A stretch of 64,000 bases of DNA from Candidatus Campbellbacteria bacterium (lineage in GTDB: Bacteria; Patescibacteriota; Minisyncoccia; Phycocordibacterales; EsbW-18). Positions 8,112 through 62,010 of this stretch are shown here, piece by piece. Where the stretch lies: positions 8,647 through 72,646 of the forward strand of contig BTUR01000003.1 of the NCBI GenBank assembly GCA_045863475.1, given 5' to 3'. The translations under genes were made by a program, and so were the position numbers. Under the pieces are notes generated by a model, which was not told where the DNA came from, searched no databases, and saw only the letters and a program-made list of their open reading frames with translations. The stretch's first letter is position 1; every line of letters starts with the position of its first letter.

Positions 8112-8182
8112 TGCCGGATCATCTAATGGTAGGATACATGACTCTGAATCATGTCATCTAGGTTCGAATCCTAGTCCGGCAA
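8112..8182 (+). tRNA. tRNA-Gln (anticodon CTG)
   Basis: Acceptor TGCCGGA/TCCGGCA, anticodon stem CATGA/TCATG with loop CTCTGAA, T-arm CTAGG-TTCGAAT-CCTAG. Its 3' end serves as an integration site and is repeated downstream. Confidence 0.8.
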
Positions 8183-9637
8183 CAAAGTTGAAATTTCTCG
8201 ATTTGGGGCACCTTTTGCAATAATCGAAAAGGGCTTTTTATATTGTAAATTAACAATTTCTTTATCTTTAAAGTAAACGTTCCAAAGTAGAGAATTCAGT
8301 ATCTTGTATTTTTTCTCATCACTACCATCCAAAAATGTTTTCGTGGCTCTACTGCTTTCTAAAAAGATTTTCTTGGTCTGTTCCAAAGTATCTTTACGAG
8401 ACCGTGCTTTATCTTCAAGATCACTAAGCTGGCTATCAATCTCAACCCTACGATTGCCTGAGACACTCATTTTTGACCTATAAAGCTCGTCTGTGATTAT
8501 TCCCGAGGCGAATCCATCAGTCAGCCGGGACTCACGCTCTAGGAGCATTTTAAGCTCCTCTCGAAGGGCGTCGATGGCTAGATCACGTCTTTCAGAGTCT
8601 ATACCTATTTTTTCTCGAGCAGACTGGTACATGATTTCAATTAAATCTTCGTCGAAGTAAAGAGTCTCGAGTTCATGCCCTAATTTTTTAACGATGTCCT
8701 CCTCACGCATGTACAATGACTTCTGAGAACAATTTCCCTTACCGTTCGTACAGTAGTAATAACGATGACCTTTCTTCAAAGATGCAGTGAGCATACATCC
8801 ACATTCATGGCATCTCATTGGACCACGAAGTGGGAAGAAGAGCGTTTGTCTTTTAGGGCGAGACGTTCCATTTAGAACTTCCTGTGCCCGATTAAAGAGA
8901 TCTTTTGTAATTATGGGTTCATGGGCACCTTGATAAAATTCACCATCACGTTCCATCATTCCGTAATAGAAAGGATTTACGATTACTCGATGAACAACTG
9001 AGCGAAACACCTTTCCTCCGGATGGAGTTCGAAGCCCCTCTGAAAAAAGAATGTTGGCAATGTCTCTAAAAGATTTTGTACCTGTTGCATATAACTCAAA
9101 CATCCTGGTAATCCAGTGAACCATCGTTGGGTTAATAACGACAGACTTTGTAGAAGGATTATTTAGGTAGCCATATGGTGCACGATTTGGCCACTCGCCA
9201 CGTTCTAACTTTGCTCTATTTCCACGCTTAACATTTGTGCTTAAATCTCTGACATATTGATTTGCCATTCCAAGCTCTACAGCCATCATGAGAACATTGT
9301 CTGTCGGGTAGTAATCTCTTTCAAAAGTTTTTATGTGTTTGATGGTGTTTTGTTGTAGCAACCAACTCACGCTTCCACCGTCCATAGGGTTTCTTGCAAG
9401 ACGATCAAGTTTCCAACAAAGAATACCGTCCGCTTTTCCATTAGAAAGTAACCCCATCATTTCATTAAAGTAGGGGCGACCGGGTGCTTTTGCAGACATA
9501 CTCTCCTTAAACGTTCGCACAATTTGAATCTGTTCCTTCTCAGCAACACGAAGAAGTTCTGATTCTTGAGAATCAAGCGACATTATTTGGCGGTCTTCTG
9601 ATTCGGATGATTTTCTACAGTAAAGAATATATCGCAT
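8171..9637 (-). CDS. large serine recombinase (resolvase/invertase N-domain, recombinase domain and zinc ribbon)
   Basis: N-terminal catalytic region YCRKSS...DRQ...SLDSQ, central recombinase domain, C-terminal zinc ribbon CHECGCM...YYYCTNGKGNC. Its stop codon lies inside the tRNA-Gln 3' end. Start codon uncertain; the long ORF runs to 9658. Confidence 0.85.
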   Translation of the reverse strand: MRYILYCRKSSESEDRQIMSLDSQESELLRVAEKEQIQIVRTFKESMSAKAPGRPYFNEMMGLLSNGKADGILCWKLDRLARNPMDGGSVSWLLQQNTIKHIKTFERDYYPTDNVLMMAVELGMANQYVRDLSTNVKRGNRAKLERGEWPNRAPYGYLNNPSTKSVVINPTMVHWITRMFELYATGTKSFRDIANILFSEGLRTPSGGKVFRSVVHRVIVNPFYYGMMERDGEFYQGAHEPIITKDLFNRAQEVLNGTSRPKRQTLFFPLRGPMRCHECGCMLTASLKKGHRYYYCTNGKGNCSQKSLYMREEDIVKKLGHELETLYFDEDLIEIMYQSAREKIGIDSERRDLAIDALREELKMLLERESRLTDGFASGIITDELYRSKMSVSGNRRVEIDSQLSDLEDKARSRKDTLEQTKKIFLESSRATKTFLDGSDEKKYKILNSLLWNVYFKDKEIVNLQYKKPFSIIAKGAPNREISTLLPD

Positions 9638-9644
9638 ACTATAG

Positions 9645-10421
9645 TTAGCATACACCATCGTCTGGAATTTTGAAAAGACGGTGTCGACACTTTCCTAACC
9701 ACTGAGTTTCGTACTCCTGATCAAATTCGGCAGAAGTTTCTTGTACCTGATAGTCATCTAATATCGGCCAGATAGGATAAGTACCCGAGAGAAATCTTGG
9801 ACGGGCGATATTTCTGGAGGCAACATACGCCTTCTTATTCTTTAGTCTCGGATCAATAAATGCTTTTGACATATATTTTGCGAGATAAAAAGAAAGTCTA
9901 TTTGAACCATCTGTTTTCTTTAGGAAGACGTGACCTCTTTTCCAGGATCTTCTAAGTGAACGAGTTTTCCGTTCTTGTACGTATACTTCAGTGGGTAACC
10001 CCCAGAACAAAGCGTGGAAATGAACTGCTCCACGTTTTTGAAACTCCGGGACACAGATATACTTGAAATCTTTTCCGTATTTATATCGGAGAGATTGGAC
10101 AAAAGTCTTGTAATCTCTGTATCCGACGGCAATATCGGTTTCGTTCTCTTTATAGGTAAGAGTAACGAGTAAAGGAGATTGAGATCCTGACAGGTTGCAT
10201 GCCACAATCCTTCTAAAAGCCATATGTGCGCGTTTAGCATTATCCTGTCTTTTCCCCAACTGTTTTTTCGAAAGAGTATCTTGTCCATCAGCTCGAATAT
10301 CCTCACTTGCATGAGTACTGCCATGACTTCTACGGGATCGTCTGGGGATCGGCTTCGGCTCTTTTTCGAATTCAAAGAGTTCCAGGTTATTTCCGTAGAT
10401 GATAATTTTTTTGTATGCCAT
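9645..10421 (-). CDS. HUH-superfamily rolling-circle replication initiator (Rep)
   Basis: Motif I LLVTLTY, motif II (HUH) VHFHALFWG, motif III YLAKYMSK. 258 aa. Confidence 0.7.
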   Translation of the reverse strand: MAYKKIIIYGNNLELFEFEKEPKPIPRRSRRSHGSTHASEDIRADGQDTLSKKQLGKRQDNAKRAHMAFRRIVACNLSGSQSPLLVTLTYKENETDIAVGYRDYKTFVQSLRYKYGKDFKYICVPEFQKRGAVHFHALFWGLPTEVYVQERKTRSLRRSWKRGHVFLKKTDGSNRLSFYLAKYMSKAFIDPRLKNKKAYVASRNIARPRFLSGTYPIWPILDDYQVQETSAEFDQEYETQWLGKCRHRLFKIPDDGVC

Positions 10422-11760: not shown

Positions 11761-12651
11761 ATGGCCACCACGCTTAAAGAAAGCTTTAGACAATTTGCAT
11801 CAAATGTAAATATTACAGATCGTCAAACGACGATTGTCTCAAACTGCAGGAATAACATTGTCAGTAAGATTGGTGCAAAATTGTCTTTGCACTCGGAACA
11901 GCCGTCAAAACTAATTGGTTCGTACGACAGAGATACTTCAACAAGATATCTAAGTGAGGGAGATGTTGATGTGATGGTTGTTTTACATTATGGAGACAAC
12001 GAAGACTGGGATAACAAAGACGGTGTTTCAAAATCGTTGAATCGGTTTAAGTCCATCCTACAAGAAGCATACCCGAAAACTACCTGTAAGATCGATAGAA
12101 ACTGTGTCACGATGAAATTATCCGAATTCCGTTTGGATGTCATTCCAACGTTTAGGTGGAATACCGGAGAATATACAATTCCAGATACACATCGTGGACA
12201 GTGGCTAAAAACTAACCCGGTAAGATTTGCCGAAGAGGTTACACGAATTAATAAACGAATGGATGGGACATTTATTCCCTTGATAAAAATGGTTAAGGCT
12301 TGGAACAGAGAATATACAAACAAACTTAGAGGATTTCACATCGAATGCATGATGATGGCACACTACAAGAATTATGATAAATCATACACGTATGATTCGA
12401 CCCTGAATGTGTTTTTTTCCAATCTTCCAAATTACTTAAATACAGCGTCATATGATCCAATTACAGGAGATAGGGTTGATTTATATCTCGACAACAGTTC
12501 TCTGGGCAACGATAGACAAACTTTTGTAAAGAGGGCTCAAAATACAGCAAAAAAATCTAAAGAAGCATACGAGGATGGAGAAAAATATCCGATCGTAGCT
12601 GTTGATGAATGGAAAGACATACTCGGTGAATTTTTCCCAGCTTATGGATAA
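11761..12651 (+). CDS. minimal nucleotidyltransferase of the SMODS/CD-NTase type
   Basis: Signature GS-x11-[DE]-x-D in GSYDRDTSTRYLSEGDVDVMVVL, plus a downstream third acidic strand motif RLDVIP. About 296 aa, typical for SMODS/cGAS-DncV-like enzymes. Confidence 0.6.
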   Translation: MATTLKESFRQFASNVNITDRQTTIVSNCRNNIVSKIGAKLSLHSEQPSKLIGSYDRDTSTRYLSEGDVDVMVVLHYGDNEDWDNKDGVSKSLNRFKSILQEAYPKTTCKIDRNCVTMKLSEFRLDVIPTFRWNTGEYTIPDTHRGQWLKTNPVRFAEEVTRINKRMDGTFIPLIKMVKAWNREYTNKLRGFHIECMMMAHYKNYDKSYTYDSTLNVFFSNLPNYLNTASYDPITGDRVDLYLDNSSLGNDRQTFVKRAQNTAKKSKEAYEDGEKYPIVAVDEWKDILGEFFPAYG

Positions 12652-13471
12652 TCAACAGAAAGCAATCCAACTAAATCAAATTGCTAGAATGCTTTTTAAT
12701 AATGCATCCATTAAGTGGCAATTGTCTATAGGATTAGAACTACTGGCTGGACTCATTGGAGTGGTGGCAACTCTATTGGCAACCACTTTAGGTTGGCAAA
12801 TTTCTAGTGCCATTTGCGTTGTTGTTCTATTGCTCGTTGCCTATTACCTATGGTACTCATTCGAGAAAGATTACGATAACGCAGAAACAATGAGACGACA
12901 GTCAGTGCTAACAGAAGGACTTGGTTGGCCTATGACTGATGCCCAATTTTCTCATTGGAAAAGCAGGGTTGCGTCAAAACTTTTACAAAAGGCACTATGC
13001 AACAAACGTGATGATGATTACTACACCACAACCGAGAACGTAGGACCAGAACGTTTATTGCAGATGACGCAAGAATCAGTTTTTTGGACTAGGAATCTTT
13101 ATGAAAGGCTTTTTAAATATATACTGGTGTGTTTGGTGTTAGTGGTAATCTCTCTCATTATCACTTTAAATATTGCGGTATTACCTCAAGACGAACAAGT
13201 CAGGTTGAACATCCTACACTTTATTTATCTGGTTATACCGCTACTGCTCACGATTGATTTTTTTGGTTTAGTTCTTCGTTTGCATCGTGCGATTCAGTCT
13301 TTACTGGAAGTCGAAAGAGACTTAGATCGATTAACTAAAGCTGAACATTCCGTCGAGCATATAATGAGATTGGTCGCGGAATATAACTGTATACTTGCTT
13401 CAGGAGTACCTATACCTAACTGGCTATTTTCTCGTCATCATGATGAGATACAGGCGTGTTGGAAAGAATAA
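12643..13471 (+). CDS. multi-pass membrane protein, candidate effector partner of the nucleotidyltransferase (SLATT-like?)
   Basis: Start ATG overlaps the upstream stop (ATGGATAA). Two N-terminal TM helices and two later TM helices. The ORF track gives the start as 12602. Confidence 0.5.
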
Positions 13472-14019
13472 ATATGTTAAACCGAATTTTTAAAAAGAAA
13501 AATACCCCATATTTCATAATAGTCATACTATTGGTTTGGGTTGCGTATCAGTACCTAGCAATTGCTAGTCTTAAGTCAACCGAGCTTTATCTGTATTCTT
13601 ATGTACCTCATGTTGAATTGAGTAGCACAAAATATCAGTCTGGAAGCGAGACACTATTTCACATCACAGGATTTGTAAAATTTAACAACACTACAGACCA
13701 ACCACGAAGACTTTGGCAATATCAGATTATTGAACCTTCAAACAAAATTGATGGGAGTGGAAATCGTATATACCTACTGACAGACATTATAAAATTGGAC
13801 TATGTACCACCGAGATATTTTGAACCAGTAGAAATCAAAGAGGTTCAAGATACAGGTTCTCTCGTTACCTTCACTGATGAGGCTGGCAACATATTCAGAA
13901 TCAACAAACTAACCGAAGAAGTATCGGTACAGGACACAACAGGAGATTCAACAACCCTTATAACAAATGAAAATGACTATAAGGACTTTATGAGAGAGTT
14001 TCTTCGGGGAGAGCAATAG
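13456..14019 (+). CDS. membrane-anchored protein, third gene of the nucleotidyltransferase operon
   Basis: Start overlaps the preceding gene by 16 nt. Single N-terminal TM helix (YFIIVILLVWVAYQYLAIA) followed by a beta-rich soluble domain. Confidence 0.45.
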   Translation: MLERINMLNRIFKKKNTPYFIIVILLVWVAYQYLAIASLKSTELYLYSYVPHVELSSTKYQSGSETLFHITGFVKFNNTTDQPRRLWQYQIIEPSNKIDGSGNRIYLLTDIIKLDYVPPRYFEPVEIKEVQDTGSLVTFTDEAGNIFRINKLTEEVSVQDTTGDSTTLITNENDYKDFMREFLRGEQ

Positions 14020-14062
14020 TGGTTCCAATATCGTCCCATAATGCCAACTCGATAACTATAGT

Positions 14063-14770
14063 ATGCAGGTAAAAACTTACTTGAACACCACCAAGGAAGA
14101 GGTGGAAGCAAAAGAACATAACATTTGGATTGGGATAAGTCTCGGAAACAAATATTTCACCAAAGAAAACATCCACGCATACATTTTGTGGGCACTTAAG
14201 CATACGAAAGATGATGTGCTTGTGGCAATTATTGACGATATCTATGCAATAAATCTCGAGGTTTTTGATAAGCGATCAAAGGACTCTTCACTTCGTAGGG
14301 CGCGCAGAAAGGGCGATACAAAGGCCGTCGAGGTTCAGGAAATTGTCGATGGTTTGTCTGGTAGGGATAAGGCGCGGGTTCATATAGTTCGGTGGATTGA
14401 CTTAATCAACTCAAAATACCACTCATACAGAACCAAGATACTGTATGACGAGTTTGAATCAAATAAAGCTTTTCACGACTACATTCTCGAGATTATCAGG
14501 GAAGGAAGAAGTGATAGGTTGCAAGAGCTAGACGAAGCGGGGATAGAAAAGTTGGCGGAGTATGTTCTTAAGGAGATACCAGTTTTCATCAACGGGGCAA
14601 AATACAAGACAAAAGATGGGTGGAAAACATACTCACTTATTCCATATCCAGGTCTTACAAAACTCGACGAATTGTTTATTGGTTTGCAGAATAAGGATCT
14701 TTTCTCCGAACTTGCGGAAAAACTAAAGATAACTGATAAGATTGCTATACTCGAGGCTTATCCTCGTTAA
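14063..14770 (+). CDS. tRNA-dependent cyclodipeptide synthase (CDPS)-like protein
   Basis: GISLGNKYF matches the AlbC catalytic-serine pocket GISAGNSYF, and AEYVLKEIPVF matches the AlbC YVLAEAPLF region containing the conserved Tyr/Glu. Size of 235 aa and a basic RRARRK patch also fit the CDPS family. Confidence 0.6.
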   Translation: MQVKTYLNTTKEEVEAKEHNIWIGISLGNKYFTKENIHAYILWALKHTKDDVLVAIIDDIYAINLEVFDKRSKDSSLRRARRKGDTKAVEVQEIVDGLSGRDKARVHIVRWIDLINSKYHSYRTKILYDEFESNKAFHDYILEIIREGRSDRLQELDEAGIEKLAEYVLKEIPVFINGAKYKTKDGWKTYSLIPYPGLTKLDELFIGLQNKDLFSELAEKLKITDKIAILEAYPR

Positions 14771-14820
14771 ATAAGGCGACGGTTCCAACATCGTCCCATA
14801 ATGCCAACAATGGAAAATTT

Positions 14821-14855
14821 GGCGGCTTCTGCCGCCTGAAATTTTGCATATTTTG
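14821..14855 (+). terminator. rho-independent terminator after the CDPS-like gene
   Basis: GGCGGC-TTCT-GCCGCC hairpin followed by TGAAATTTTG. Confidence 0.4.
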
Positions 14856-14916
14856 CGCCGGACTAGGATTCGATGGCCGCAGGCGCGCCATTGGTCCAAG
14901 CGCCGAGGCGGGGTCG

Positions 14917-14986
14917 AGAGTACTTTGCATTTTGTCGTGTACGCGAGCAAAATGCTTAGTAACTCGTGACAGAATCCTGGTCCTAT
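14917..14986. repeat. attC-like imperfect palindrome plus tRNA-Gln-3'-end-like core, copy 1 (copy 2 at 21532..21598)
   Basis: CGAGAGTACTTTGCATTTTGTCG-loop-CGAGCAAAATGCTTAGTAACTCG followed by GAATCCTGGTCC. It is about 90% identical to 21532-21598. Confidence 0.6.
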
Positions 14987-15048
14987 AGGGTTTACGGATC
15001 GAAGGAGAATCCTAGTCCAATAACATTAAGATTTAATCCAATTCATAA

Positions 15049-15678
15049 ATGATATTTCTCACCTCAAGTGTCGGTTCCGTTGCCACACATCTCTACAAGA
15101 ACTTTCTTGCCGACAAAGGGTTTATATCGGTGCTTTTTATTGATACTGCGGCTGAACCAGAAATCGGCAACGGAGAAGATGATGGGTGGCTTCAAAATGA
15201 CCTTCAGTCTCTTCGGGATCAGGGGTACAGAGTGGATCGGTACACAATAACAGGGAAGGAGCGAGGTGAGATTGAAAGGAAGCTCGATGAGTATGATGTT
15301 ATCTACATGTCTGGTGGCAACACGGCTTATTTACTCGACCAGTTGCAGAAGACAAACTCCTTCACTCTAATCAAGGAAAAGGTTGGTCACGGCAAGCCGT
15401 ATATCGCTACGAGTGCAGGTTCGATTATCGCCGGCCCCAGAATTCCCGAGTATCTTAGGGAGGGGGAGCCTGCTCTCGATGATTACACCGCATTCGGTTT
15501 TGTTAATTTTGTAGTGGCCCCGCATTGGGGTTCGGATATATTTAGAGATGAGTACATAGGAGGAAGAATTGAAACCGCATACAGGCTTGATCAGCCGCCG
15601 TATGTTCTTTTGAACGATATGCAGTATATCTTCGTCAACGACGACGGTTTAGTTAGAATCGTAGAGACAAAACCATAA
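15049..15678 (+). CDS. peptidase family S51 (dipeptidase E / cyanophycinase-like)
   Basis: MSGGNTAYL (GGNT motif) and the nucleophile-Ser motif ATSAGS, plus a downstream His (PHWGSD). 209 aa. Confidence 0.7.
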   Translation: MIFLTSSVGSVATHLYKNFLADKGFISVLFIDTAAEPEIGNGEDDGWLQNDLQSLRDQGYRVDRYTITGKERGEIERKLDEYDVIYMSGGNTAYLLDQLQKTNSFTLIKEKVGHGKPYIATSAGSIIAGPRIPEYLREGEPALDDYTAFGFVNFVVAPHWGSDIFRDEYIGGRIETAYRLDQPPYVLLNDMQYIFVNDDGLVRIVETKP

Positions 15679-15716
15679 CTCGAATCCTAGTCCGGGGTAT
15701 TTTAATTTTTTCAACC

Positions 15717-16883
15717 ATGAAAGTTCTACTCACCGGTGTTGCTGGAACGGGAAAATCGACGCTCACAAAAGCCTTGGTGGGAAGAGGAATTGCAGCGATA
15801 GACCTCCACGACATCCCCGGTCTGTGTTATTGGCAGGACAAAAAGACAAAACAAAAAGTTGAATATGTTCCAACCAACTCGCGAGAATGGTTTGATACGG
15901 TGGACCGCTTATGCGACATCGAGCAATTGAAAGAGGTTCTTAATCAACAAGACAGCATTATTGTCGCAGGTACAGCAGGCGAGAGTCAGAGCGAATATCT
16001 TCCGCTTTTTGATAAAGTTATACTTTTGCAATGTAGTCCAGAAACTGTTGTACGCCGTATGCAAACACGGACCAATAAATCTGGATACGGAAAAACAAAA
16101 GCAGAACAGGATGACACCGTTGAGTGGCAGAAAGGATTTGACTCAGAACTTCTCTCACGTGGTGCGATTCCTCTTAATACGGAAGGTGATGTTGATGAAA
16201 CCGTAGACAGAATTATTGAGATAACAAAAATACCCTCGCGGTCCTGGTCCAGAAACAAAAACATGAGTGCAACAAAGGAAGAAATTGAGGTTATTTTTCT
16301 TGAAATCGACAAAGACGAGGTGGAGAAGAAACTCGCCGCTCTTGGCGCCACAAAAACACGTGATTTCTTTTACCGGCATGCCTCATTCGATTATCCAGAT
16401 TATCGGCTCAATAAAGACAACAGCTGGATACGCTTGCGTGATGAGGACGGAGAAGTGCGATTGGCATTCAAGAAGCGTCTTGGCGTTACATCGCAGGACG
16501 GCAGCACGAACGACGAGGGTATGGAAGAAATTGAAACCACCGTGGGAAATTATGAAAATACCAAAATCCTTCTAGGAAAGGTTGGGTTCATCGAGAAACA
16601 CGAAGCAGAAAAGAAACGGACACGGTGGCAGTTGGGGGAGACAGAATTCGATATCGACACATGGCCGGGCATCCCGACGTTCCTTGAAATCGAGGCACCG
16701 TCATGGGAAGCGATTGATGAGGCAACGCAATCCCTCGGGTTGGACCCGAAGAGCAGAAAAATCTGCTCGGTGAACCAGGTGTACCGCATGTACGGTATGG
16801 ATGTTGATGATTATCAGAAACTCAGCTTCAACGGATTGGTCAAGAAACAACCGAATCTTAGTCCGGCAACAAATAAAAAATAA
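15717..16883 (+). CDS. fusion of a P-loop (uridine-kinase-like) kinase domain and a CYTH domain (CyaB/thiamine-triphosphatase fold)
   Basis: N-terminus LLTGVAGTGKSTL Walker A. C-terminal half carries IRLR and the terminal EFDIDTWPGIPTFLEIE motif typical of CYTH domains. The N-domain is paralogous to ORF 18978..19478. Confidence 0.6.
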   Translation: MKVLLTGVAGTGKSTLTKALVGRGIAAIDLHDIPGLCYWQDKKTKQKVEYVPTNSREWFDTVDRLCDIEQLKEVLNQQDSIIVAGTAGESQSEYLPLFDKVILLQCSPETVVRRMQTRTNKSGYGKTKAEQDDTVEWQKGFDSELLSRGAIPLNTEGDVDETVDRIIEITKIPSRSWSRNKNMSATKEEIEVIFLEIDKDEVEKKLAALGATKTRDFFYRHASFDYPDYRLNKDNSWIRLRDEDGEVRLAFKKRLGVTSQDGSTNDEGMEEIETTVGNYENTKILLGKVGFIEKHEAEKKRTRWQLGETEFDIDTWPGIPTFLEIEAPSWEAIDEATQSLGLDPKSRKICSVNQVYRMYGMDVDDYQKLSFNGLVKKQPNLSPATNKK

Positions 16884-16888
16884 TTTGT

Positions 16889-17020
16889 ATGCATAAGGCA
16901 GAACCATCTGAAGAGCTGTTGCAATGTTATGACGAGGAAGGAAATCATTCCGAACCGCCAATTGCAGAGCTATCTGGAAATTGTAATTTTCATACTCCAT
17001 ATATTGACTTTCCAATATAA
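16889..17020 (+). pseudogene. truncated duplicate of the 5' end of the Nudix gene
   Basis: MHKAEPSEELLQCYDEEGN... is highly similar to the Nudix N-terminus at 20030 (MHKAEPPQELLQCYDDQGS), then diverges and stops after 43 codons. Confidence 0.5.
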
Positions 17021-17158
17021 AGATGATATAATCCCCATCGGAGGCATCAGGAGGTGCTTCTTCCAAAACAACCATTTCGGAGGGAGGTCTCCTTGAAAAA
17101 CGAATATCCTGATTCACGCTGGTTGAGCACTGCGCTCGCCCTGCCTGCCGGTCAGATC

Positions 17159-17896
17159 ATGGCTGAGAAGTTCAGTGTGGGCACAACCTCGGTTTGGAAG
17201 TCCGACCGGACTCCCGTCACCGAGGCCGACACCCAGATCAACGAGCTCGTCCTCAACGCACTTCGCCGCCACTACCCCCACATCCACGTGATCTCGGAGG
17301 AAGGCAATGGCGAGGTGGACGGCGCCGAGTATCGCATCCTCTGCGATCCTCTCGACGGCACGTTTGCGTTCATGTACGGGCTTCCGATTTCGTCGTTCTG
17401 CATCTCGGTGCTCCGCGAGAACACGGTCCTGTCGTCGGTCATCTATGACCCGTTCTGCAAGAGAATGTGGTCGGCGGATCGAGGCAAGGGCGCGTTCCTC
17501 AACGGAGCTCCGACGCGGGTCAACGTGATCGACGGCATCACGAAGCCCAATCCGGTGAACGTGTGCATCGTGTGGTGGCAGGGATGCTACTACAATATGC
17601 ACGCAGTCGCTGGTGAGGTCATGGCCGCCAACATGCACGTCATGCAACCCATGACGATCGCACTATGTGGAGGCCTCATCGCTTCGGGCACGCTCGAGGC
17701 GACTGTGTTTCCCGGTCAGAGAGGTTGGGAAACGGCTGCGATGGGTCTGATTGTGGAAGAGTCCGGTGGCAAGGTCACCGACATCCACGGCAATCCCGTC
17801 CAGTACGGACCGACCGCCGAGATCGAAGGGCACATCATCAGCAACGGCACCCTCGTTCACAACTCGCTTGTCGATATCGTGCGGAGGTGTCAGTAA
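17159..17896 (+). CDS. inositol monophosphatase family phosphatase (SuhB/CysQ-like, possible 3'(2'),5'-bisphosphate nucleotidase)
   Basis: DPLDGT metal-binding motif and WETAAMGLIVEESGG (WDxAAG-like). GC is clearly higher than in neighbouring genes. Confidence 0.75.
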   Translation: MAEKFSVGTTSVWKSDRTPVTEADTQINELVLNALRRHYPHIHVISEEGNGEVDGAEYRILCDPLDGTFAFMYGLPISSFCISVLRENTVLSSVIYDPFCKRMWSADRGKGAFLNGAPTRVNVIDGITKPNPVNVCIVWWQGCYYNMHAVAGEVMAANMHVMQPMTIALCGGLIASGTLEATVFPGQRGWETAAMGLIVEESGGKVTDIHGNPVQYGPTAEIEGHIISNGTLVHNSLVDIVRRCQ

Positions 17897-18933: not shown

Positions 18934-18977
18934 AATTCCCAGCATCGTCCCATAAGGTCAACAAAAAAATTCTTACC

Positions 18978-19478
18978 ATGAAAATTTACGTAACCGGTAT
19001 TTCCGGATCAGGTAAAACTAGTATCGCTCGACTTCTTAATGAGCACGGTGTATCGGCCGTCGATATTGATGAAATTAGCCACTGGGAAAATAAAGGGACA
19101 AAAGAAAGAACGGGATGGGACCACGATAAGAGCGACGAATGGTACGCGACACATGAGTGGATTTGTGATATTCAGAAACTGAAAGAGGTGCTTCTGTCAT
19201 CAGAGCATATTGTGGTTGTTGGACACGCGGCCAATCAAGAGGAGTACTTTCCTCTTTTCGATAAATCGTACGTGCTCCTGTGTAGCCCTGAGACCATTGT
19301 TGCGCGTCTAAACGCGAGAACGGATAATGATTTTGGAAAACACCCTGCCGATCAAAAGAGAATCCTTGGTTGGCAAAAAAGCTTTGAATCTGAAATGATC
19401 GAGAAGGGCGCAGAGCCACTAGACGCGGAGCGACCCTTAGAAGAAGTTATTGCGGATATCCGTTCAAATTTTTCATAA
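18978..19478 (+). CDS. stand-alone P-loop kinase, paralog of the kinase domain of 15717..16883
   Basis: Walker A GISGSGKTS. Shares W..C[DI]I[QE]KLKEVL and PLFDK..LL.CSPET.V.R motifs with the kinase-CYTH fusion. Confidence 0.6.
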   Translation: MKIYVTGISGSGKTSIARLLNEHGVSAVDIDEISHWENKGTKERTGWDHDKSDEWYATHEWICDIQKLKEVLLSSEHIVVVGHAANQEEYFPLFDKSYVLLCSPETIVARLNARTDNDFGKHPADQKRILGWQKSFESEMIEKGAEPLDAERPLEEVIADIRSNFS

Positions 19479-19521: not shown

Positions 19522-20022
19522 ATGTCAAAACTTTACATCATGAGTGGCGTTGGTTTTTCTGGAAAGTCGACGCTCGCAAAGAAAATCGCAGAATATACTG
19601 GAGCTATTCTTGTCAGTCAAGACGGGCTTTTCTTTGAAAAGGAGAAGGAGTTGGGTATCGACCAAGATAGTGATGAACAGTGGCGCATGCTTCTTGATAT
19701 GTGTCTCGAACGGATCCGTCAACTTCTCTCGGAGGGAAAATCGGTGGTGTTTGATAACACAAACACTCGTCACCAGCATCGCGAAGAAGTTCGGCAAGTT
19801 GCTCTGGCTACTGACGCAGAACCCATTGTTGTTTTTCTCGATACACCAATCGAGGTTCAGAAAGAGAGACAGGAAAGAAATCGAATCACTAAAGAGCGGC
19901 ACGACGTGAAGCAGGAATATCTCGACCAAGCAATCGCAGAACTGGAGGTTCCCGGAGAAGATGAGAACGTGCGAGTCTTTAAGCCAGACACAAAGTTGAG
20001 CACTTTTCTTGAAAGTCTCTAA
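19522..20022 (+). CDS. P-loop kinase, polynucleotide-kinase/AAA_33-like
   Basis: Walker A SGVGFSGKSTLAKK and a DNTNTRHQHR motif (DxTN as in T4 Pnk-type kinases). 166 aa. Confidence 0.55.
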   Translation: MSKLYIMSGVGFSGKSTLAKKIAEYTGAILVSQDGLFFEKEKELGIDQDSDEQWRMLLDMCLERIRQLLSEGKSVVFDNTNTRHQHREEVRQVALATDAEPIVVFLDTPIEVQKERQERNRITKERHDVKQEYLDQAIAELEVPGEDENVRVFKPDTKLSTFLESL

Positions 20023-20029
20023 TAATCCT

Positions 20030-20578
20030 ATGCATAAGGCAGAACCACCACAAGAACTCTTGCAATGCTATGACGATCAAGGAAGCCCGATTGATTCGAA
20101 AACACGAGCAGAGATAAAAGCTAACCCAGGAACATATTGGTGTGGTGTTGTGAACGTGTGGGTGGTAAATAGTGAGGGACAACTTCTTTGCTCAAAGCGT
20201 TCGAAAGGTCTTTCTGGTAATCCGGGGAAGTGGCAGACATATTTTGGAGGACATATTCCTGCCGGGCTTGGTTTTCGAGAAGCGGCGGTGAAGGAGTTGG
20301 GGGAAGAGACTGGTATTCATTTTGAAGAGAATAGTCTCTTTTTTATCCATCGAGGAAAAGACGATGTGAACAAGAAGTTTTTTGAGAGCTACGCAGTTCG
20401 CTTCAATGGTCAACCGAGCGATCTGGTTTTTACTGACGGAGAGATAACAGAGGCGAGGTGGATGCCTATTGAGGAATATGTTGCTGACGAGGCACAGAAC
20501 CCAGAACGGTGGTGTAATGGGTGCAAACCTGAACGCCGAAAAGCCATTCAAGAGTGGGTTAGTACCTTTCAAAAATAA
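20030..20578 (+). CDS. Nudix hydrolase
   Basis: Nudix box GGHIPAGLGFREAAVKELGEETGI. Confidence 0.8.
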   Translation: MHKAEPPQELLQCYDDQGSPIDSKTRAEIKANPGTYWCGVVNVWVVNSEGQLLCSKRSKGLSGNPGKWQTYFGGHIPAGLGFREAAVKELGEETGIHFEENSLFFIHRGKDDVNKKFFESYAVRFNGQPSDLVFTDGEITEARWMPIEEYVADEAQNPERWCNGCKPERRKAIQEWVSTFQK

Positions 20579-21438: not shown

Positions 21439-21531
21439 AAGTTCCCGGAGCTTCACAGAAAAGGAGTCGCACCCAAGACTTATTCTGTGAGGCTCCTTTT
21501 CGTTTTTACGGGCATATTTGGGGCGGGGATC

Positions 21532-21598
21532 GAGAGTACTTTGCATTTTGTCGCGCAGGCGAGCAAAATGCTTAGTAACTCGTGACCGAATCCTAGTC
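21532..21598. repeat. attC-like imperfect palindrome plus tRNA-Gln-3'-end-like core, copy 2
   Basis: Second copy of the 14917-14986 element, ending in GAATCCTAGTCCG. Confidence 0.6.
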
Positions 21599-21716
21599 CG
21601 AGGGTTTCCGAGTTCCGTATGTCCGGCACCCCGAATCGAAGAAGAAAGGCGTACTCGCGGTCCTGGTCCGGCAACGTTGTTAAATAACTAGACGTTAATA
21701 AACTAAAGAGCGAATT

Positions 21717-59239: not shown

Positions 59240-59310
59240 TGCCGGGTCGTCTAATGGTAGGACACCTCCCTTTGGAGGAGGGTATCTTGGTTCGAGTCCA
59301 AGCCCGGCAA
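59240..59310 (+). tRNA. tRNA-Gln (anticodon TTG)
   Basis: Acceptor TGCCGGG/CCCGGCA, anticodon stem CCTCC/GGAGG with loop CTTTGGA, T-arm CTTGG-TTCGAGT-CCAAG. Confidence 0.8.
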
Positions 59311-59343
59311 CAGTCATGTGATAGACCGAGACCCATCAAAAAT

Positions 59344-59814
59344 ATGGACTACACACTTAGAAAAGCGAGAGAGCAAGATATACCTCAAATCATAGAATTG
59401 AGCGGACTTCTTGCTGACCATCACCATGTTTTGGATTCATATTGGAAGGCAGGATCTGAAACAAAGAATACATTTGGCGAATTCATAAAAAGTGAGTTAG
59501 AGAAGACAAATGTAATGTTGCTTGTTGCGGAGGTAAACCAAAAGGTTGTAGGTTACTTTTCTGCTGAAATAAGCCCTACAAAACCTGTTATTTTTGTTCC
59601 CTATATAGGTCATATCTCAAATGGCTTTCTTCTTGAAGAATATAGAGGCAAAGGAATTGCCAAAAAAGCCGTAGAACAATTCCTCAGTTGGTTTAAAAAA
59701 CAAAATGTAAAAGTTGCTGAACTTACTGTTGATTCTAGAAACGTTGAGGGCGTCAGAGCCTGGGAAGGAATGGGATTTAAGGAGTACATGAAAAGAATGA
59801 AAATGGATATTTAG
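59344..59814 (+). CDS. GNAT-family N-acetyltransferase
   Basis: Acetyl-CoA binding motif YRGKGIAKKAVEQ. AT-rich. Confidence 0.7.
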   Translation: MDYTLRKAREQDIPQIIELSGLLADHHHVLDSYWKAGSETKNTFGEFIKSELEKTNVMLLVAEVNQKVVGYFSAEISPTKPVIFVPYIGHISNGFLLEEYRGKGIAKKAVEQFLSWFKKQNVKVAELTVDSRNVEGVRAWEGMGFKEYMKRMKMDI

Positions 59815-60104
59815 GGCCAGATCGAGACGGGTCGGAATCTCTAATAATTCCTTCCACGATATCCTTACGGGGTCTTGCCACAGAAATCTGAGACCGTGAC
59901 ACACAACAGCCATGTGAGATAGACTGAGACGCCTAAATCAGTCATACTTCTCAAAGTATTTTTTGGACGAGTCATGGGCTCGAACCGCACGGAGAGGGTG
60001 TCCTAGACTCCCTTGAGTCTTGTCGAAAATTTCATATCCGGTGGACAAGGCGTCGAAGCAAAAGACATTATTACTAAGGGTAATTTTTTGCTAAAATTGT
60101 ATAT

Positions 60105-60692
60105 GTGAATAATGAGGACACGAAATTAATACACACAGCAAAGCAAGATCCTCGCGAGTTTGAAGCGGTTTATAGAAAGTATGCGGATAAAGTGTTCAAC
60201 TATTTTTGGTATCGGACTGGACACGACAAGGCTCTTTCCGAGGACCTCATGCAGGAGACGTTCTTGCGCGCCTTTCAGCATCTTAAAAGATTCCAGGTCA
60301 GGGGCTATTCGTACCTGACGTACCTTCTCACCATCGCGCGGCGGCTTCTCATTGACCACTACCGAAAGCCATCTTCAGTACCCCTCGAAGACGCAGAGAA
60401 CGTACCGTACGAGGTAACAGAAGATATTGAACGCAAATCAAACGCCGAAGCGTTGTGGCACGCGATCCAAACCCTGCCACCGTCGAACCGCGATGTTCTC
60501 CTCATGTATTACCAAGACGAGAAGCCGGTAAAAGATATCGCGGTCATTACCGGTTCGTCAGAGAACGCCGTCAAGCTTAACCTTTCGCGCACCCGAAAAA
60601 AGCTCGCTGCCCATCCGTATTTGAAAGATATGGCAGATTTCAGAGGGAAGCAGCGCTCATACACCAAGCCGAAGTTCCTCAAACGGCCCTGA
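60105..60692 (+). CDS. ECF-type RNA polymerase sigma factor (GTG start)
   Basis: Sigma-70 region 2 (FNYFWYRTG..LSEDLMQETFLRAF) and region 4 (DVLLMYYQDEKPVKDIAVITGSSENAVKLNLSRTRKKL). Confidence 0.8.
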   Translation: MNNEDTKLIHTAKQDPREFEAVYRKYADKVFNYFWYRTGHDKALSEDLMQETFLRAFQHLKRFQVRGYSYLTYLLTIARRLLIDHYRKPSSVPLEDAENVPYEVTEDIERKSNAEALWHAIQTLPPSNRDVLLMYYQDEKPVKDIAVITGSSENAVKLNLSRTRKKLAAHPYLKDMADFRGKQRSYTKPKFLKRP

Positions 60693-60783
60693 CACCTTTT
60701 ATGTACCATTCCGTTAAATAGGAATGACCGAAGGGTCTGTGTTTTAACCGCACATAGCGTGGTCGTTTTGATACGAAAATATC

Positions 60784-62010
60784 ATGCAAATAAATAAAAA
60801 TCTTGCTAAGCATGTTGCCATAACGGTCGTAGTTGCTCTCATCACCTCCGTTTTGACCGGAGCCGTTTTTATCACATGGGCAAAGAATAACCCGTCCTCG
60901 TTCGCACAGTTGGTTGCTTCAGGCCCAACAAACAATCAGAACGCATCTTCAACCGCTTTCCTGTATCCGGTCGAGTCTTTAGTGGTGAATACGGTCAAGA
61001 AAACGAACCCAGCGGTTGTCGCTATCACCGTCTCAAAAAACGTTCCGGTCTATGAGAGATATTTAGAGAGAGTCCCAAGTCCCTTTGAAGATTTCTTTGG
61101 CGGGTTCACTATTCCGCAGTTGCGCCAGAATGGTACGGAGCTTCGTGAGGTTGGCGGCGGCTCTGGATTCCTTGTCTCGGCCGACGGCTATATTGTGACC
61201 AACCGCCACGTGGTTGCCGACGAAAGTGCGGAGTACACGGTCTTTGCGAATGACGGCAAAAAGTACGACGCCAAGGTTATCGCTCGTGACCCTGCACTTG
61301 ATCTGGCGATCATAAAAATAAACGGTTCCGGCTTCCCGCACCTCACATTCGCTGACTCCGACAAGCTCGAGGTCGGCCAGAGCGTAATCGCTATCGGCAA
61401 TGCGCTCGCAGAATTTAGGAATACCGTGTCCGTAGGTGTTGTGTCCGGCCTCTCTCGCTCCATCGTTGCATCAGACTCGCTTGGCAGAAATGCCGAGGCG
61501 TTGGATCAGCTCATTCAGACCGACGCCGGTATCAATCACGGCAATTCCGGTGGGCCTCTTTTGAATCTTTCTGGAGAGGTTATCGGCGTGAACGTCGCCA
61601 TAGCCGAAGGCGCAGAGAATATTGGTTTTGCGATCTCTGGCAACAGCGTAAAGAGCGTTGTCGAATCCGTGCAGAAGACAGGCAAGATAGTTCGGCCGTA
61701 TCTTGGCGTTCGGTATGTGGAGATAACGGAAGAAATCAAAGAAAAGAATAAGCTTTCAGTTGATCATGGCGTACTCGTTCAGCGCGGCGCGGCCGTATCC
61801 GATCTCGCGGTCATTCCCGGCTCACCGGCAGATAAAGCCGGAATAGTTGAGAACGACATTGTCTTGGAGATCGACGGCATAAAACTCACGCCGGAGCAGA
61901 GTTTGGCATCCATTATCCGAACAAAGAAAGTCGGCGATTCTGTACGATTGAAAATAAACCACAAAGGCGAAGAAAAGACGGTAACGGTCAAACTGGAAGA
62001 AATGAAATGA
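60784..62010 (+). CDS. htrA: HtrA/DegP-family serine protease with PDZ domain
   Basis: TNRHVV (His), DLAII (Asp), GNSGGPLLN (Ser), C-terminal PDZ. N-terminal TM anchor. Confidence 0.9.
   Translation: MQINKNLAKHVAITVVVALITSVLTGAVFITWAKNNPSSFAQLVASGPTNNQNASSTAFLYPVESLVVNTVKKTNPAVVAITVSKNVPVYERYLERVPSPFEDFFGGFTIPQLRQNGTELREVGGGSGFLVSADGYIVTNRHVVADESAEYTVFANDGKKYDAKVIARDPALDLAIIKINGSGFPHLTFADSDKLEVGQSVIAIGNALAEFRNTVSVGVVSGLSRSIVASDSLGRNAEALDQLIQTDAGINHGNSGGPLLNLSGEVIGVNVAIAEGAENIGFAISGNSVKSVVESVQKTGKIVRPYLGVRYVEITEEIKEKNKLSVDHGVLVQRGAAVSDLAVIPGSPADKAGIVENDIVLEIDGIKLTPEQSLASIIRTKKVGDSVRLKINHKGEEKTVTVKLEEMK

Follow-up and report, generated by a model that had tools for sequence, protein, structure and literature searches.

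The 64,000-nucleotide stretch analyzed here (the window; positions 8,647 to 72,646 on the forward strand of contig BTUR01000003.1, assembly GCA_045863475.1) comes from a Candidatus Campbellbacteria bacterium, and all coordinates below are those of the window. By sequence, predicted fold, and catalytic residues, the open reading frame (ORF) 14063-14770 is a genuine, intact cyclodipeptide synthase (CDPS). The explanation that we favor for its setting, with a modest degree of confidence in the whole, is a mosaic island in which the CDPS travels alone and the S51-family hydrolase gene behind it (ORF 15049-15678) belongs elsewhere. The CDPS gene would be a solo cargo gene, bracketed by a 28-nt direct repeat, that has lost the overlapping GNAT gene kept by its closest relatives. 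The island would be a mosaic targeted to tRNA-Gln, with the upstream cyclic-oligonucleotide-based antiphage signaling system (CBASS) as unrelated cargo, and the S51 gene, 278 bp downstream, would be part of a separate S51 plus AAA_18/CYTH module with tRNA-Gln 3′-end copies at its boundaries.

Both ORFs were found at these positions on the + strand. An initial annotation of this DNA had proposed a CDPS on the basis of two motifs resembling those of AlbC. Both were recovered: residues 24-32 read GISLGNKYF, and residues 167-175 read YVLKEIPVF. The protein scored 52.7 bits against the Pfam CDPS model PF16715 (gathering threshold 27, E=6e-14) and 68.2 bits against TIGR04539 (tRNA-dependent cyclodipeptide synthase; cutoff 45). 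Among solved chains, its sequence matched the ParcuCDPS variants 7QAT/7QB8 (E ~3e-27 to 1e-26), and AlbC (3OQV) was also matched (E=0.035; query residues 19-176 against AlbC 30-187). A constant offset of 11 residues places S26, Y167, and E171 on S37, Y178, and E182 of AlbC, all experimentally essential and with S37 as the nucleophile (PMC3105412). ParcuCDPS activity requires S26, D58, Y167, and E171. The catalytic set of the window protein consists of S26 (in GISLGN), D58, Y167, E171, and Y195-P196, and an alignment of 27 homologues showed G24, S26, N29, D58, Y167, E171, P173, and Y195-P196 to be invariant.

An AlphaFold (AF2) model computed from the same 27-homologue alignment reached a mean pLDDT of 96.2 and a pTM of 0.91, and displays the Rossmann fold of solved CDPSs, which resembles that of class-I aminoacyl-tRNA synthetases. 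The top 50 Foldseek matches in the PDB were CDPSs only (TMq 0.58-0.77), the best of them being ParcuCDPS 7QAT (TM up to 0.77/0.84). Because of the pair Y195-P196, which occupies the positions of Y202-H203 in AlbC and is invariant in the clade, the protein falls in the XYP subfamily, in which ParcuCDPS has also been classed. The CDPS call is thus borne out: Pfam and TIGRFAM cutoffs were exceeded, the predicted fold matches CDPS structures including ParcuCDPS, and neither of the outcomes that the initial annotation had named as fatal (no match to a CDPS model, loss of the catalytic Ser/Tyr/Glu) was seen. An identical protein (P0001, 100%) is on record from a Candidatus Campbellbacteria metagenome-assembled genome (MAG), and an identical stretch (L001) was assembled from an independent sample.

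Substrate preference was examined through the P1 pocket. ParcuCDPS makes cyclo(His-Pro) and cyclo(His-Glu), with the histidine bound via Y55, E174, and Y189, and hydrophobic replacements at these three positions switch the enzyme to Leu or Phe. At the aligned positions the window CDPS carries A55, V174, and I193 and thus lacks the polar P1 triad of His-incorporating enzymes of the ParcuCDPS type. Because these residues replace the His-binding ones, the first substrate is predicted to be hydrophobic (of the Leu, Phe, or Met type) and not His, and for the same reason cyclo(His-Pro) and cyclo(His-Glu) would not be expected as products. The pocket definitions for XYP enzymes are acknowledged as uncertain, and the prediction was therefore limited to P1.

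[quoted passage not shown] Consumption of aminoacyl-tRNAs by CDPSs is established biochemistry (PMC3105412), and homology to AlbC and ParcuCDPS provided the mechanism for the window enzyme. It would comprise three steps: (i) transfer of the aminoacyl group of a first aminoacyl-tRNA to Ser26, polarized by Asp58, with Tyr167 and Glu171 positioning the substrate; (ii) extension of the acyl-enzyme by a second aminoacyl-tRNA to give a dipeptidyl-enzyme; and (iii) intramolecular cyclization, assisted by Tyr195, with release of a 2,5-diketopiperazine.

An exhaustive family search returned 301 clusters (50% identity) at E <= 1e-3 and 53 at E <= 1e-30. The members that carry a name are distributed over Patescibacteria/CPR lineages and DPANN or other archaea, and many close homologues are already annotated publicly as 'tRNA-dependent cyclodipeptide synthase'. 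The initial annotation had implied that a CDPS is odd outside the usual biosynthetic hosts. It was right about the small-genome host, which is a CPR bacterium; the oddity itself disappears, since ParcuCDPS, an enzyme of Parcubacteria bacterium RAAC4_OD1_1, has been characterized both biochemically and structurally. CDPSs of CPR bacteria are therefore already known, and the window gene adds an ordinary member to a characterized clade. We also noted that members of the same clade are shared between CPR bacteria and archaeal MAGs of Woesearchaeota and Nanoarchaeota (loci L010-L012, L015, L018, and L019; 43-48% identical to the window protein), a distribution that suggests gene exchange between ultra-small archaea and bacteria.

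For the comparison of gene neighborhoods, 104 homologous CDPS loci were fetched and dereplicated to 82, of which 62 had at least 2 kb of flank, and the neighboring genes were clustered without prior assumptions. Two partners dominated. A SET-domain protein of ~150 aa adjoins the 3′ end of the CDPS gene in 16 CPR/DPANN loci of the dereplicated set (L006, L010, L018, L020, L026, L036, L037, L050, L054, L077, L078, L085-L087, and L090 among them), and a GNAT protein of ~146 aa abuts it in 10-11. Published work names N-acetyltransferases as the domain most often associated with CDPSs. Over-long family members included CDPS-SET fusions in three distinct clusters (P0370, P0373, and P0430), and one fusion each of the types CDPS-methyltransferase, phosphoribosyltransferase (PRTase)-CDPS, and Imp-YgjV-CDPS. 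SET domains are normally protein-lysine methyltransferases, and the CDPS-SET pairing may represent a new type of cyclodipeptide tailoring. No literature report was found of a CDPS paired with either SET or S51.

At the window locus itself, the neighbors are the CBASS genes, a 187-aa gene without a family match, the S51 gene, and an AAA_18-CYTH gene; the adjacent cyclodipeptide oxidase, P450, 2-oxoglutarate-dependent oxygenase, or methyltransferase of a classical CDPS cluster is absent, and no SET gene adjoins the CDPS gene in the window. In all three of its closest relatives (76%, 73%, and 65% identity), the stop codon of a GNAT gene overlaps the CDPS start codon. The loci concerned are L106 (9573-10708), L107, L108 (3204-4324), and L033 (1566-2704). 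A tblastn search found no remnant of GNAT or SET beside the window CDPS, and the one weak GNAT match lies far off, at 59356-59808.

The loss of this overlap, and with it of translational coupling to GNAT, could also be read as decay, the CDPS then being a non-functional remnant in a degraded island whose product is no longer used. No obvious Shine-Dalgarno sequence stands in the 14 nt before the CDPS ATG, and other gene fragments occur in the island, e.g. the duplicated Nudix N-terminus at 16888-16943. Decay is nonetheless very unlikely, given a full-length ORF in which every invariant family residue is kept, a structure model of very high confidence, and an identical protein from the independent sample.

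The next gene after the CDPS is an S51-family hydrolase, as the initial annotation had stated, with 98.8 bits against Pfam Peptidase_S51 (gathering threshold 23.9). Its further identification as a peptidase E cleaving Asp-X dipeptides did not hold. Against the PepE equivalog model NF003642, only residues 74-160 aligned, with 44.7 bits at a cutoff of 156, so that by its sequence the protein is a member of the S51 family and not a PepE equivalog, and Asp-X cleavage is not established because this model failed. Six CDPS-linked S51s share S122-A-G-S, P158-H159, and D190 without exception. The product would most likely be a general dipeptide or amide hydrolase, probably transcribed separately from the CDPS.

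With 333 matches at E <= 1e-10, the CPR subfamily that includes the window's S51 is large. The closest relatives of this protein (61-87% identity) were seen in six independent contexts, none of which held a CDPS. In one of these, locus L110, the gene order is CYTH-S51-GNAT-AAA_18, with CYTH 48% identical to the CYTH half of the window's fusion protein, S51 67% identical, and AAA_18 79% identical to the window gene 18978-19478. Because of this context and the absence of CDPS from all six, the window's S51 appears to travel with its downstream genes and not with the CDPS. Another, type-A S51 subtype is very large (3,695 matches at E <= 1e-20). In three syntenic CPR genomes (L116, L117/L118, and L119; ~4.0-6.0 kb), S51-MazG is fixed between sugar-nucleotide genes and the gene for serine hydroxymethyltransferase, and the slot just upstream of S51 varies, holding a CDPS, a 188-aa gene without an assigned family, or DUF5680 plus Nudix. 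This slot is a hot spot for small accessory enzymes.

The sequences around the two genes point to module boundaries (Table 1). The 28-nt repeat bracketing the CDPS gene gave two matches against 0 expected by chance, and DNA similarity to the closest CDPS loci does not extend beyond ~14073-14762, within the coding sequence. The repeat has a third copy of lower similarity (75%) at 18935-18962, just upstream of the AAA_18 gene 18978-19478. This element may act as a shared promoter or as a 5′ leader, or it may mark a module boundary. Compared with shuffled controls, the 278-bp CDPS-S51 spacer is much more strongly folded (z = -5.5). It holds three tRNA-Gln 3′-end copies, one of them inverted, as well as a 74-nt repeat; the 12-mer at 15007-15018 is the pairing partner of the inverted copy (14860-14871). 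The tRNA-Gln(CTG) 3′ end, with the core (T/C)CGAATCCTAGTCCGG, is present at least eight times and partitions the island between 8164 and 21675. The 12-mer GAATCCTRGTCC occurs in six exact copies in the window, all within the island, where 0.02 would be expected. The S51 gene stands between the copies at 15007-15018 and 15680-15697, and the AAA_18-CYTH gene between those at 15680-15697 and 16851-16873. Because these repeats bracket the modules individually, the CDPS and S51 genes most likely fall into different modules.

Table 1 Features of the window around the CDPS gene, and CDPS loci of other genomes with a nearby S51 gene
Feature	Position	Strand	Remarks
tRNA-Gln(CTG)	8112-8183	+	ARAGORN; island start
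Large serine recombinase	8171-9658	-	Stop codon overlaps tRNA-Gln 3′ end
Rep protein, REP_ORF2-G2P-type	9645-10421	-	
Type I CBASS	11761..14019	+	Cyclase 11761-12651, 4TM effector 12602-13471, 187-aa gene 13456-14019
28-nt direct repeat, copy 1 (GGTTCCAATATCGTCCCATAATGCCAAC)	14021..14048	+	14 nt before CDPS start codon
CDPS gene, 235 aa, XYP-type	14063..14770	+	HMMs, PDB sequence matches, alignment, AF2 model, Foldseek
28-nt direct repeat, copy 2	14781..14808	+	27/28 identical; 10 nt past CDPS stop codon
GC-rich hairpin GGCGGC-TTCT-GCCGCC with U-rich tail	14821..14855	+	Putative, intrinsic-terminator-like
Inverted tRNA-Gln 3′-end copy (TCGAATCCTAGTCCGGCG)	14844..14873	-	Repeat comparison
74-nt repeat, ending in tRNA-3′-like 12-mer GAATCCTGGTCC	14910..14983	+	92% identical copy at 21526-21599
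tRNA-Gln 3′-like 12-mer GAATCCTAGTCC	15007..15018	+	Left boundary of S51 module
S51-family (class I glutamine-amidotransferase-like) serine hydrolase, 209 aa	15049..15678	+	Pfam, alignment
tRNA-Gln 3′ copy (TCGAATCCTAGTCCGGGG)	15680..15697	+	2 nt past S51 stop; right boundary of S51 module
AAA_18 kinase-like + CYTH fusion protein, 388 aa	15717..16883	+	Conserved companion of the window's S51 subfamily (cf. L110)
Best direct tRNA-Gln 3′-end copy	16851..16873	+	ACAAA extension beyond tRNA end, 1 mismatch
tRNA-Gln 3′-end copies (at least eight)	8164-8183 (real tRNA), 14844-14873 (inverted), 14972-14983, 15007-15018, 15680-15697, 16851-16873, 21586-21601, 21657-21675		
Locus L028			CDPS and S51 overlapping by 20 nt (also L117)
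Locus L092			S51 then CDPS, gap 4 nt
Locus L033			S51-GNAT-CDPS
Locus L089			CDPS, one gene between, then S51
Locus L040			S51-methyltransferase-CDPS

The copy at 16851-16873 is a candidate right attachment site of the recombinase-bearing element, and the array of tRNA 3′ ends looks like the outcome either of integrations and decay that recurred at a single tRNA site or of cassette-like accretion. Around homologous genes in the rest of the 119 loci, the 28-nt repeat and the tRNA 12-mer are both missing, so the junction motifs are strain-specific and not a general cassette signal. No RNA family was detected by Rfam at E <= 1 between 13900 and 22000, ARAGORN returned intact tRNAs only and no tRNA-like element in the spacer or island, and a sigma-70 promoter scan gave no more sites than in shuffled sequence.

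Several observations weigh against this separation of the CDPS from S51. Five loci besides that of the window's strain have an S51 gene on the same strand within 2.5 kb of the CDPS gene. With a hidden Markov model (HMM) built from the CDPS-linked S51s, which was applied to 279 kb of near flank (<= 2.5 kb) and 459 kb of far flank, no S51 was found beyond 2.5 kb of a CDPS in the far flank; all five S51s being near is improbable under uniform placement (P ~0.008). The S51-linked CDPSs stand at four places in the CDPS tree with various gene orders, the three S51 subtypes involved are mutually only 24-28% identical, and some of the pairs overlap or stand 4 nt apart. The sister CDPS of the window gene (L033, 64% identity) also has an S51, of another subfamily. 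Such a pattern could reflect repeated selection for CDPS-S51 pairing rather than co-residence.

The enrichment of S51 near CDPS at the level of the clade is real. It can be explained by facultative functional coupling or by accessory enzymes gathering in the same variable slots. Under the explanation that we favor, both genes would be drawn from a set of accessory enzymes (Nudix, MazG, CYTH, GNAT, SET, AAA_18, and S51) that share variable slots of CPR genomes; the idea of such a guild is a qualitative impression from ~15 contexts, which likewise counts against it.

If the genes were instead a functional pair, S51 would act on the CDPS product or on shunt products, by opening the diketopiperazine ring, by recycling linear dipeptides off the dipeptidyl-enzyme, or by protecting the producer, and in the window a small repeat element would merely have been inserted between two formerly coupled genes. 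We regard this as a tentative possibility only. It is favored by the same-strand S51 genes within 2.5 kb in L028, L033, L040, L089, and L092 and their absence from the far flanks, by the tight layouts (the 20-nt overlap in L028/L117, the 4-nt gap in L092, and S51-GNAT-CDPS in L033), by the fact that related genomes have the CDPS before or after S51 (L117 vs L092), by the participation of three S51 subtypes, and by the intact catalytic Ser and His of S51. Opposed to it is the lack of CDPS in all six contexts of the window's own S51 subfamily, and the type-A S51s form a huge family that stays with MazG where CDPS is absent. Also, S51 is missing at the two closest relatives of the window CDPS, and no CDPS-S51 fusion was seen among the over-long family members, although SET, methyltransferase, PRTase, and Imp-YgjV fusions occur. 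The P1 residues differ among the S51-linked CDPSs, and no common product is therefore implied. The window spacer moreover holds the terminator-like hairpin and the module-boundary repeats. Peptidase cleavage of diketopiperazines, once reported, could not be confirmed by a dedicated study (PMC3852281), and the literature yielded nothing relevant on a diketopiperazine hydrolase of the S51 type.

The initial annotation had suggested a diketopiperazine signal together with its hydrolase and had proposed co-occurrence of the two genes across genomes as a check. The outcome is divided: nearby S51 genes do recur in five other loci, while the window pair lies in separate modules, relatives of its S51 have no CDPS in any of six contexts, and no fusion was found. 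A dedicated CDPS-S51 pair in this window is unlikely. It is similarly doubtful that S51 is a non-canonical partner of the CPR/DPANN CDPS clade that here processes the tRNA-derived product by diketopiperazine opening or linear dipeptide recycling. The remark that the association had not been described earlier stands, in that no paper on it was found.

The island is a low-GC block at ~8.2-23.5 kb (~38-47% G+C against ~53% around it). Its recombinase and Rep genes are followed by a gene for a helix-turn-helix regulator, and a CBASS operon precedes the CDPS gene. The cyclase reached 217 bits on PADLOC model PDLC00823 and 189 bits on NF041117, and the 4TM effector 77 bits on PDLC00724. The initial annotation had described a mobile island downstream of a CBASS-like operon, and this description was confirmed by the cyclase, the 4TM effector, the serine recombinase, and the Rep protein. 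The 187-aa gene at 13456-14019, which overlaps the effector gene, encodes an N-terminal hydrophobic segment; it had no family match, and no homologue in the fetched loci. Also notable is that this CPR (Campbellbacteria) genome has its type I CBASS on an element that carries both a large serine recombinase and a Rep protein.

The same annotation had raised a defense or aminoacyl-tRNA-consuming toxin function. In this version, the CDPS, with or without S51, would work with the upstream CBASS through depletion of aminoacyl-tRNAs or a signaling diketopiperazine during phage infection. Within the mobile island the gene does directly follow a type I CBASS, and CDPSs are established consumers of aminoacyl-tRNA. 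Yet when homologues of SMODS, 4TM, and the 187-aa protein were sought in 105 CDPS loci, they were found in the window's own strain only (SMODS/4TM in 0/81 other dereplicated CDPS loci), and none of the 5,027 PADLOC models matched either the CDPS or S51. The usual partners of the clade are tailoring-type enzymes (SET, GNAT, and methyltransferases), the CDPS homologues reside mostly in ordinary chromosomal contexts, and a scan of viral contigs found no relatives. A defense or toxin module is thus highly improbable. Linkage to CBASS was rejected on the confinement of its homologues to the window's own strain, and a phage origin on the result of the viral-contig scan.

Further observations concern the makeup of this and possibly another island. 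A 56-nt segment at 16888-16943, 86% identical to 20029-20084, repeats the part of the Nudix gene (20009-20578) that codes for the N-terminus and directly follows the attachment-like site 16851-16873; it is probably a truncated older copy and evidence for a decayed tandem array. An inositol-monophosphatase-family gene inside the island (17054-17896, 128.6 bits) lies in a markedly GC-richer stretch (~0.50 on average) with long antisense ORFs, and is of a compositional origin unlike that of its neighbors. Behind a further tRNA-Gln gene (TTG; 59240-59311) comes another low-GC stretch (~0.45-0.49; region 59240-61000) that includes the weak GNAT-like match mentioned above. Possibly, this region is a second island at a tRNA-Gln gene.

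The main value of the window CDPS lies in its predicted hydrophobic P1 pocket, which contrasts with that of the His-specific ParcuCDPS. More useful is the wider comparison, in which a CPR/DPANN CDPS clade is coupled to SET (adjacent and fused) and GNAT proteins, with S51 enriched nearby. If SET, GNAT, and S51 are true tailoring or processing enzymes, known cyclodipeptide chemistry would be extended, and real partnerships would offer a handle on small-molecule production by episymbiotic microbes with almost no other biosynthetic capacity. Should S51 act on the CDPS product, it would be the first such S51 enzyme, and an episymbiont would then have a tRNA-dependent pathway to a dipeptide or signal that includes a dedicated hydrolase; taken with the CDPS-SET fusions, this would hint at novel chemistry of cyclodipeptide tailoring in ultra-small microbes. 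Of the by-products, these fusions and the single-gene modules bounded by tRNA fragments are of most interest.

Among known systems, type I CBASS (CD-NTase plus 4TM effector) is represented by the genes at 11761-13471, which match cyclase and effector models; the CDPS and S51 genes are not components of it, given the lack of recurrence and of any defense-model match. In tandem tRNA islands, successive site-specific integrations duplicate the tRNA 3′ end. Like these, the window island abuts tRNA-Gln, its recombinase gene overlaps the tRNA 3′ end, and direct 3′-end copies partition the region. Unlike them, it has one recombinase, of the large serine type rather than a tyrosine integrase, two single-gene modules (S51 and AAA-CYTH), and one inverted copy, and its motifs do not flank homologous genes in other genomes.

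The window S51 shares with PepE and with the uncharacterized S51 proteins Lmo0363 (3L4E) and DR_1070 (6A4T/6IRU) the S51 fold family, the SAGS elbow, the His, and a single domain of ~200 aa. It differs from PepE in failing the equivalog model (44.7 vs 156 bits), and the acidic residue of the triad appears to be Asp190, where a Glu has been described for PepE.

AlbC (Streptomyces noursei, albonoursin pathway) and YvmC have the same fold as the window CDPS and presumably the same ping-pong acyl-enzyme mechanism, and S37, Y178, E182, and Y202 of AlbC correspond to S26, Y167, E171, and Y195. AlbC and the window CDPS differ in that the former belongs to the NYH subfamily (H203) and the latter to the XYP type (P196), at ~18% identity, and no cyclodipeptide oxidase or P450 gene lies near the latter. 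The nearest characterized relative is ParcuCDPS (CDPS 90; PDB 7QB8 and mutants), the top match of the window CDPS in both sequence (E ~1e-26) and structure (TM up to 0.84). Identity is only ~25-30%, and the P1 residues are Y55/E174/Y189 in ParcuCDPS vs A55/V174/I193 in the window protein. Both are XYP enzymes of ~230 aa from CPR bacteria, with the same Y-P motif and the same numbering of S26, D58, Y167, and E171.

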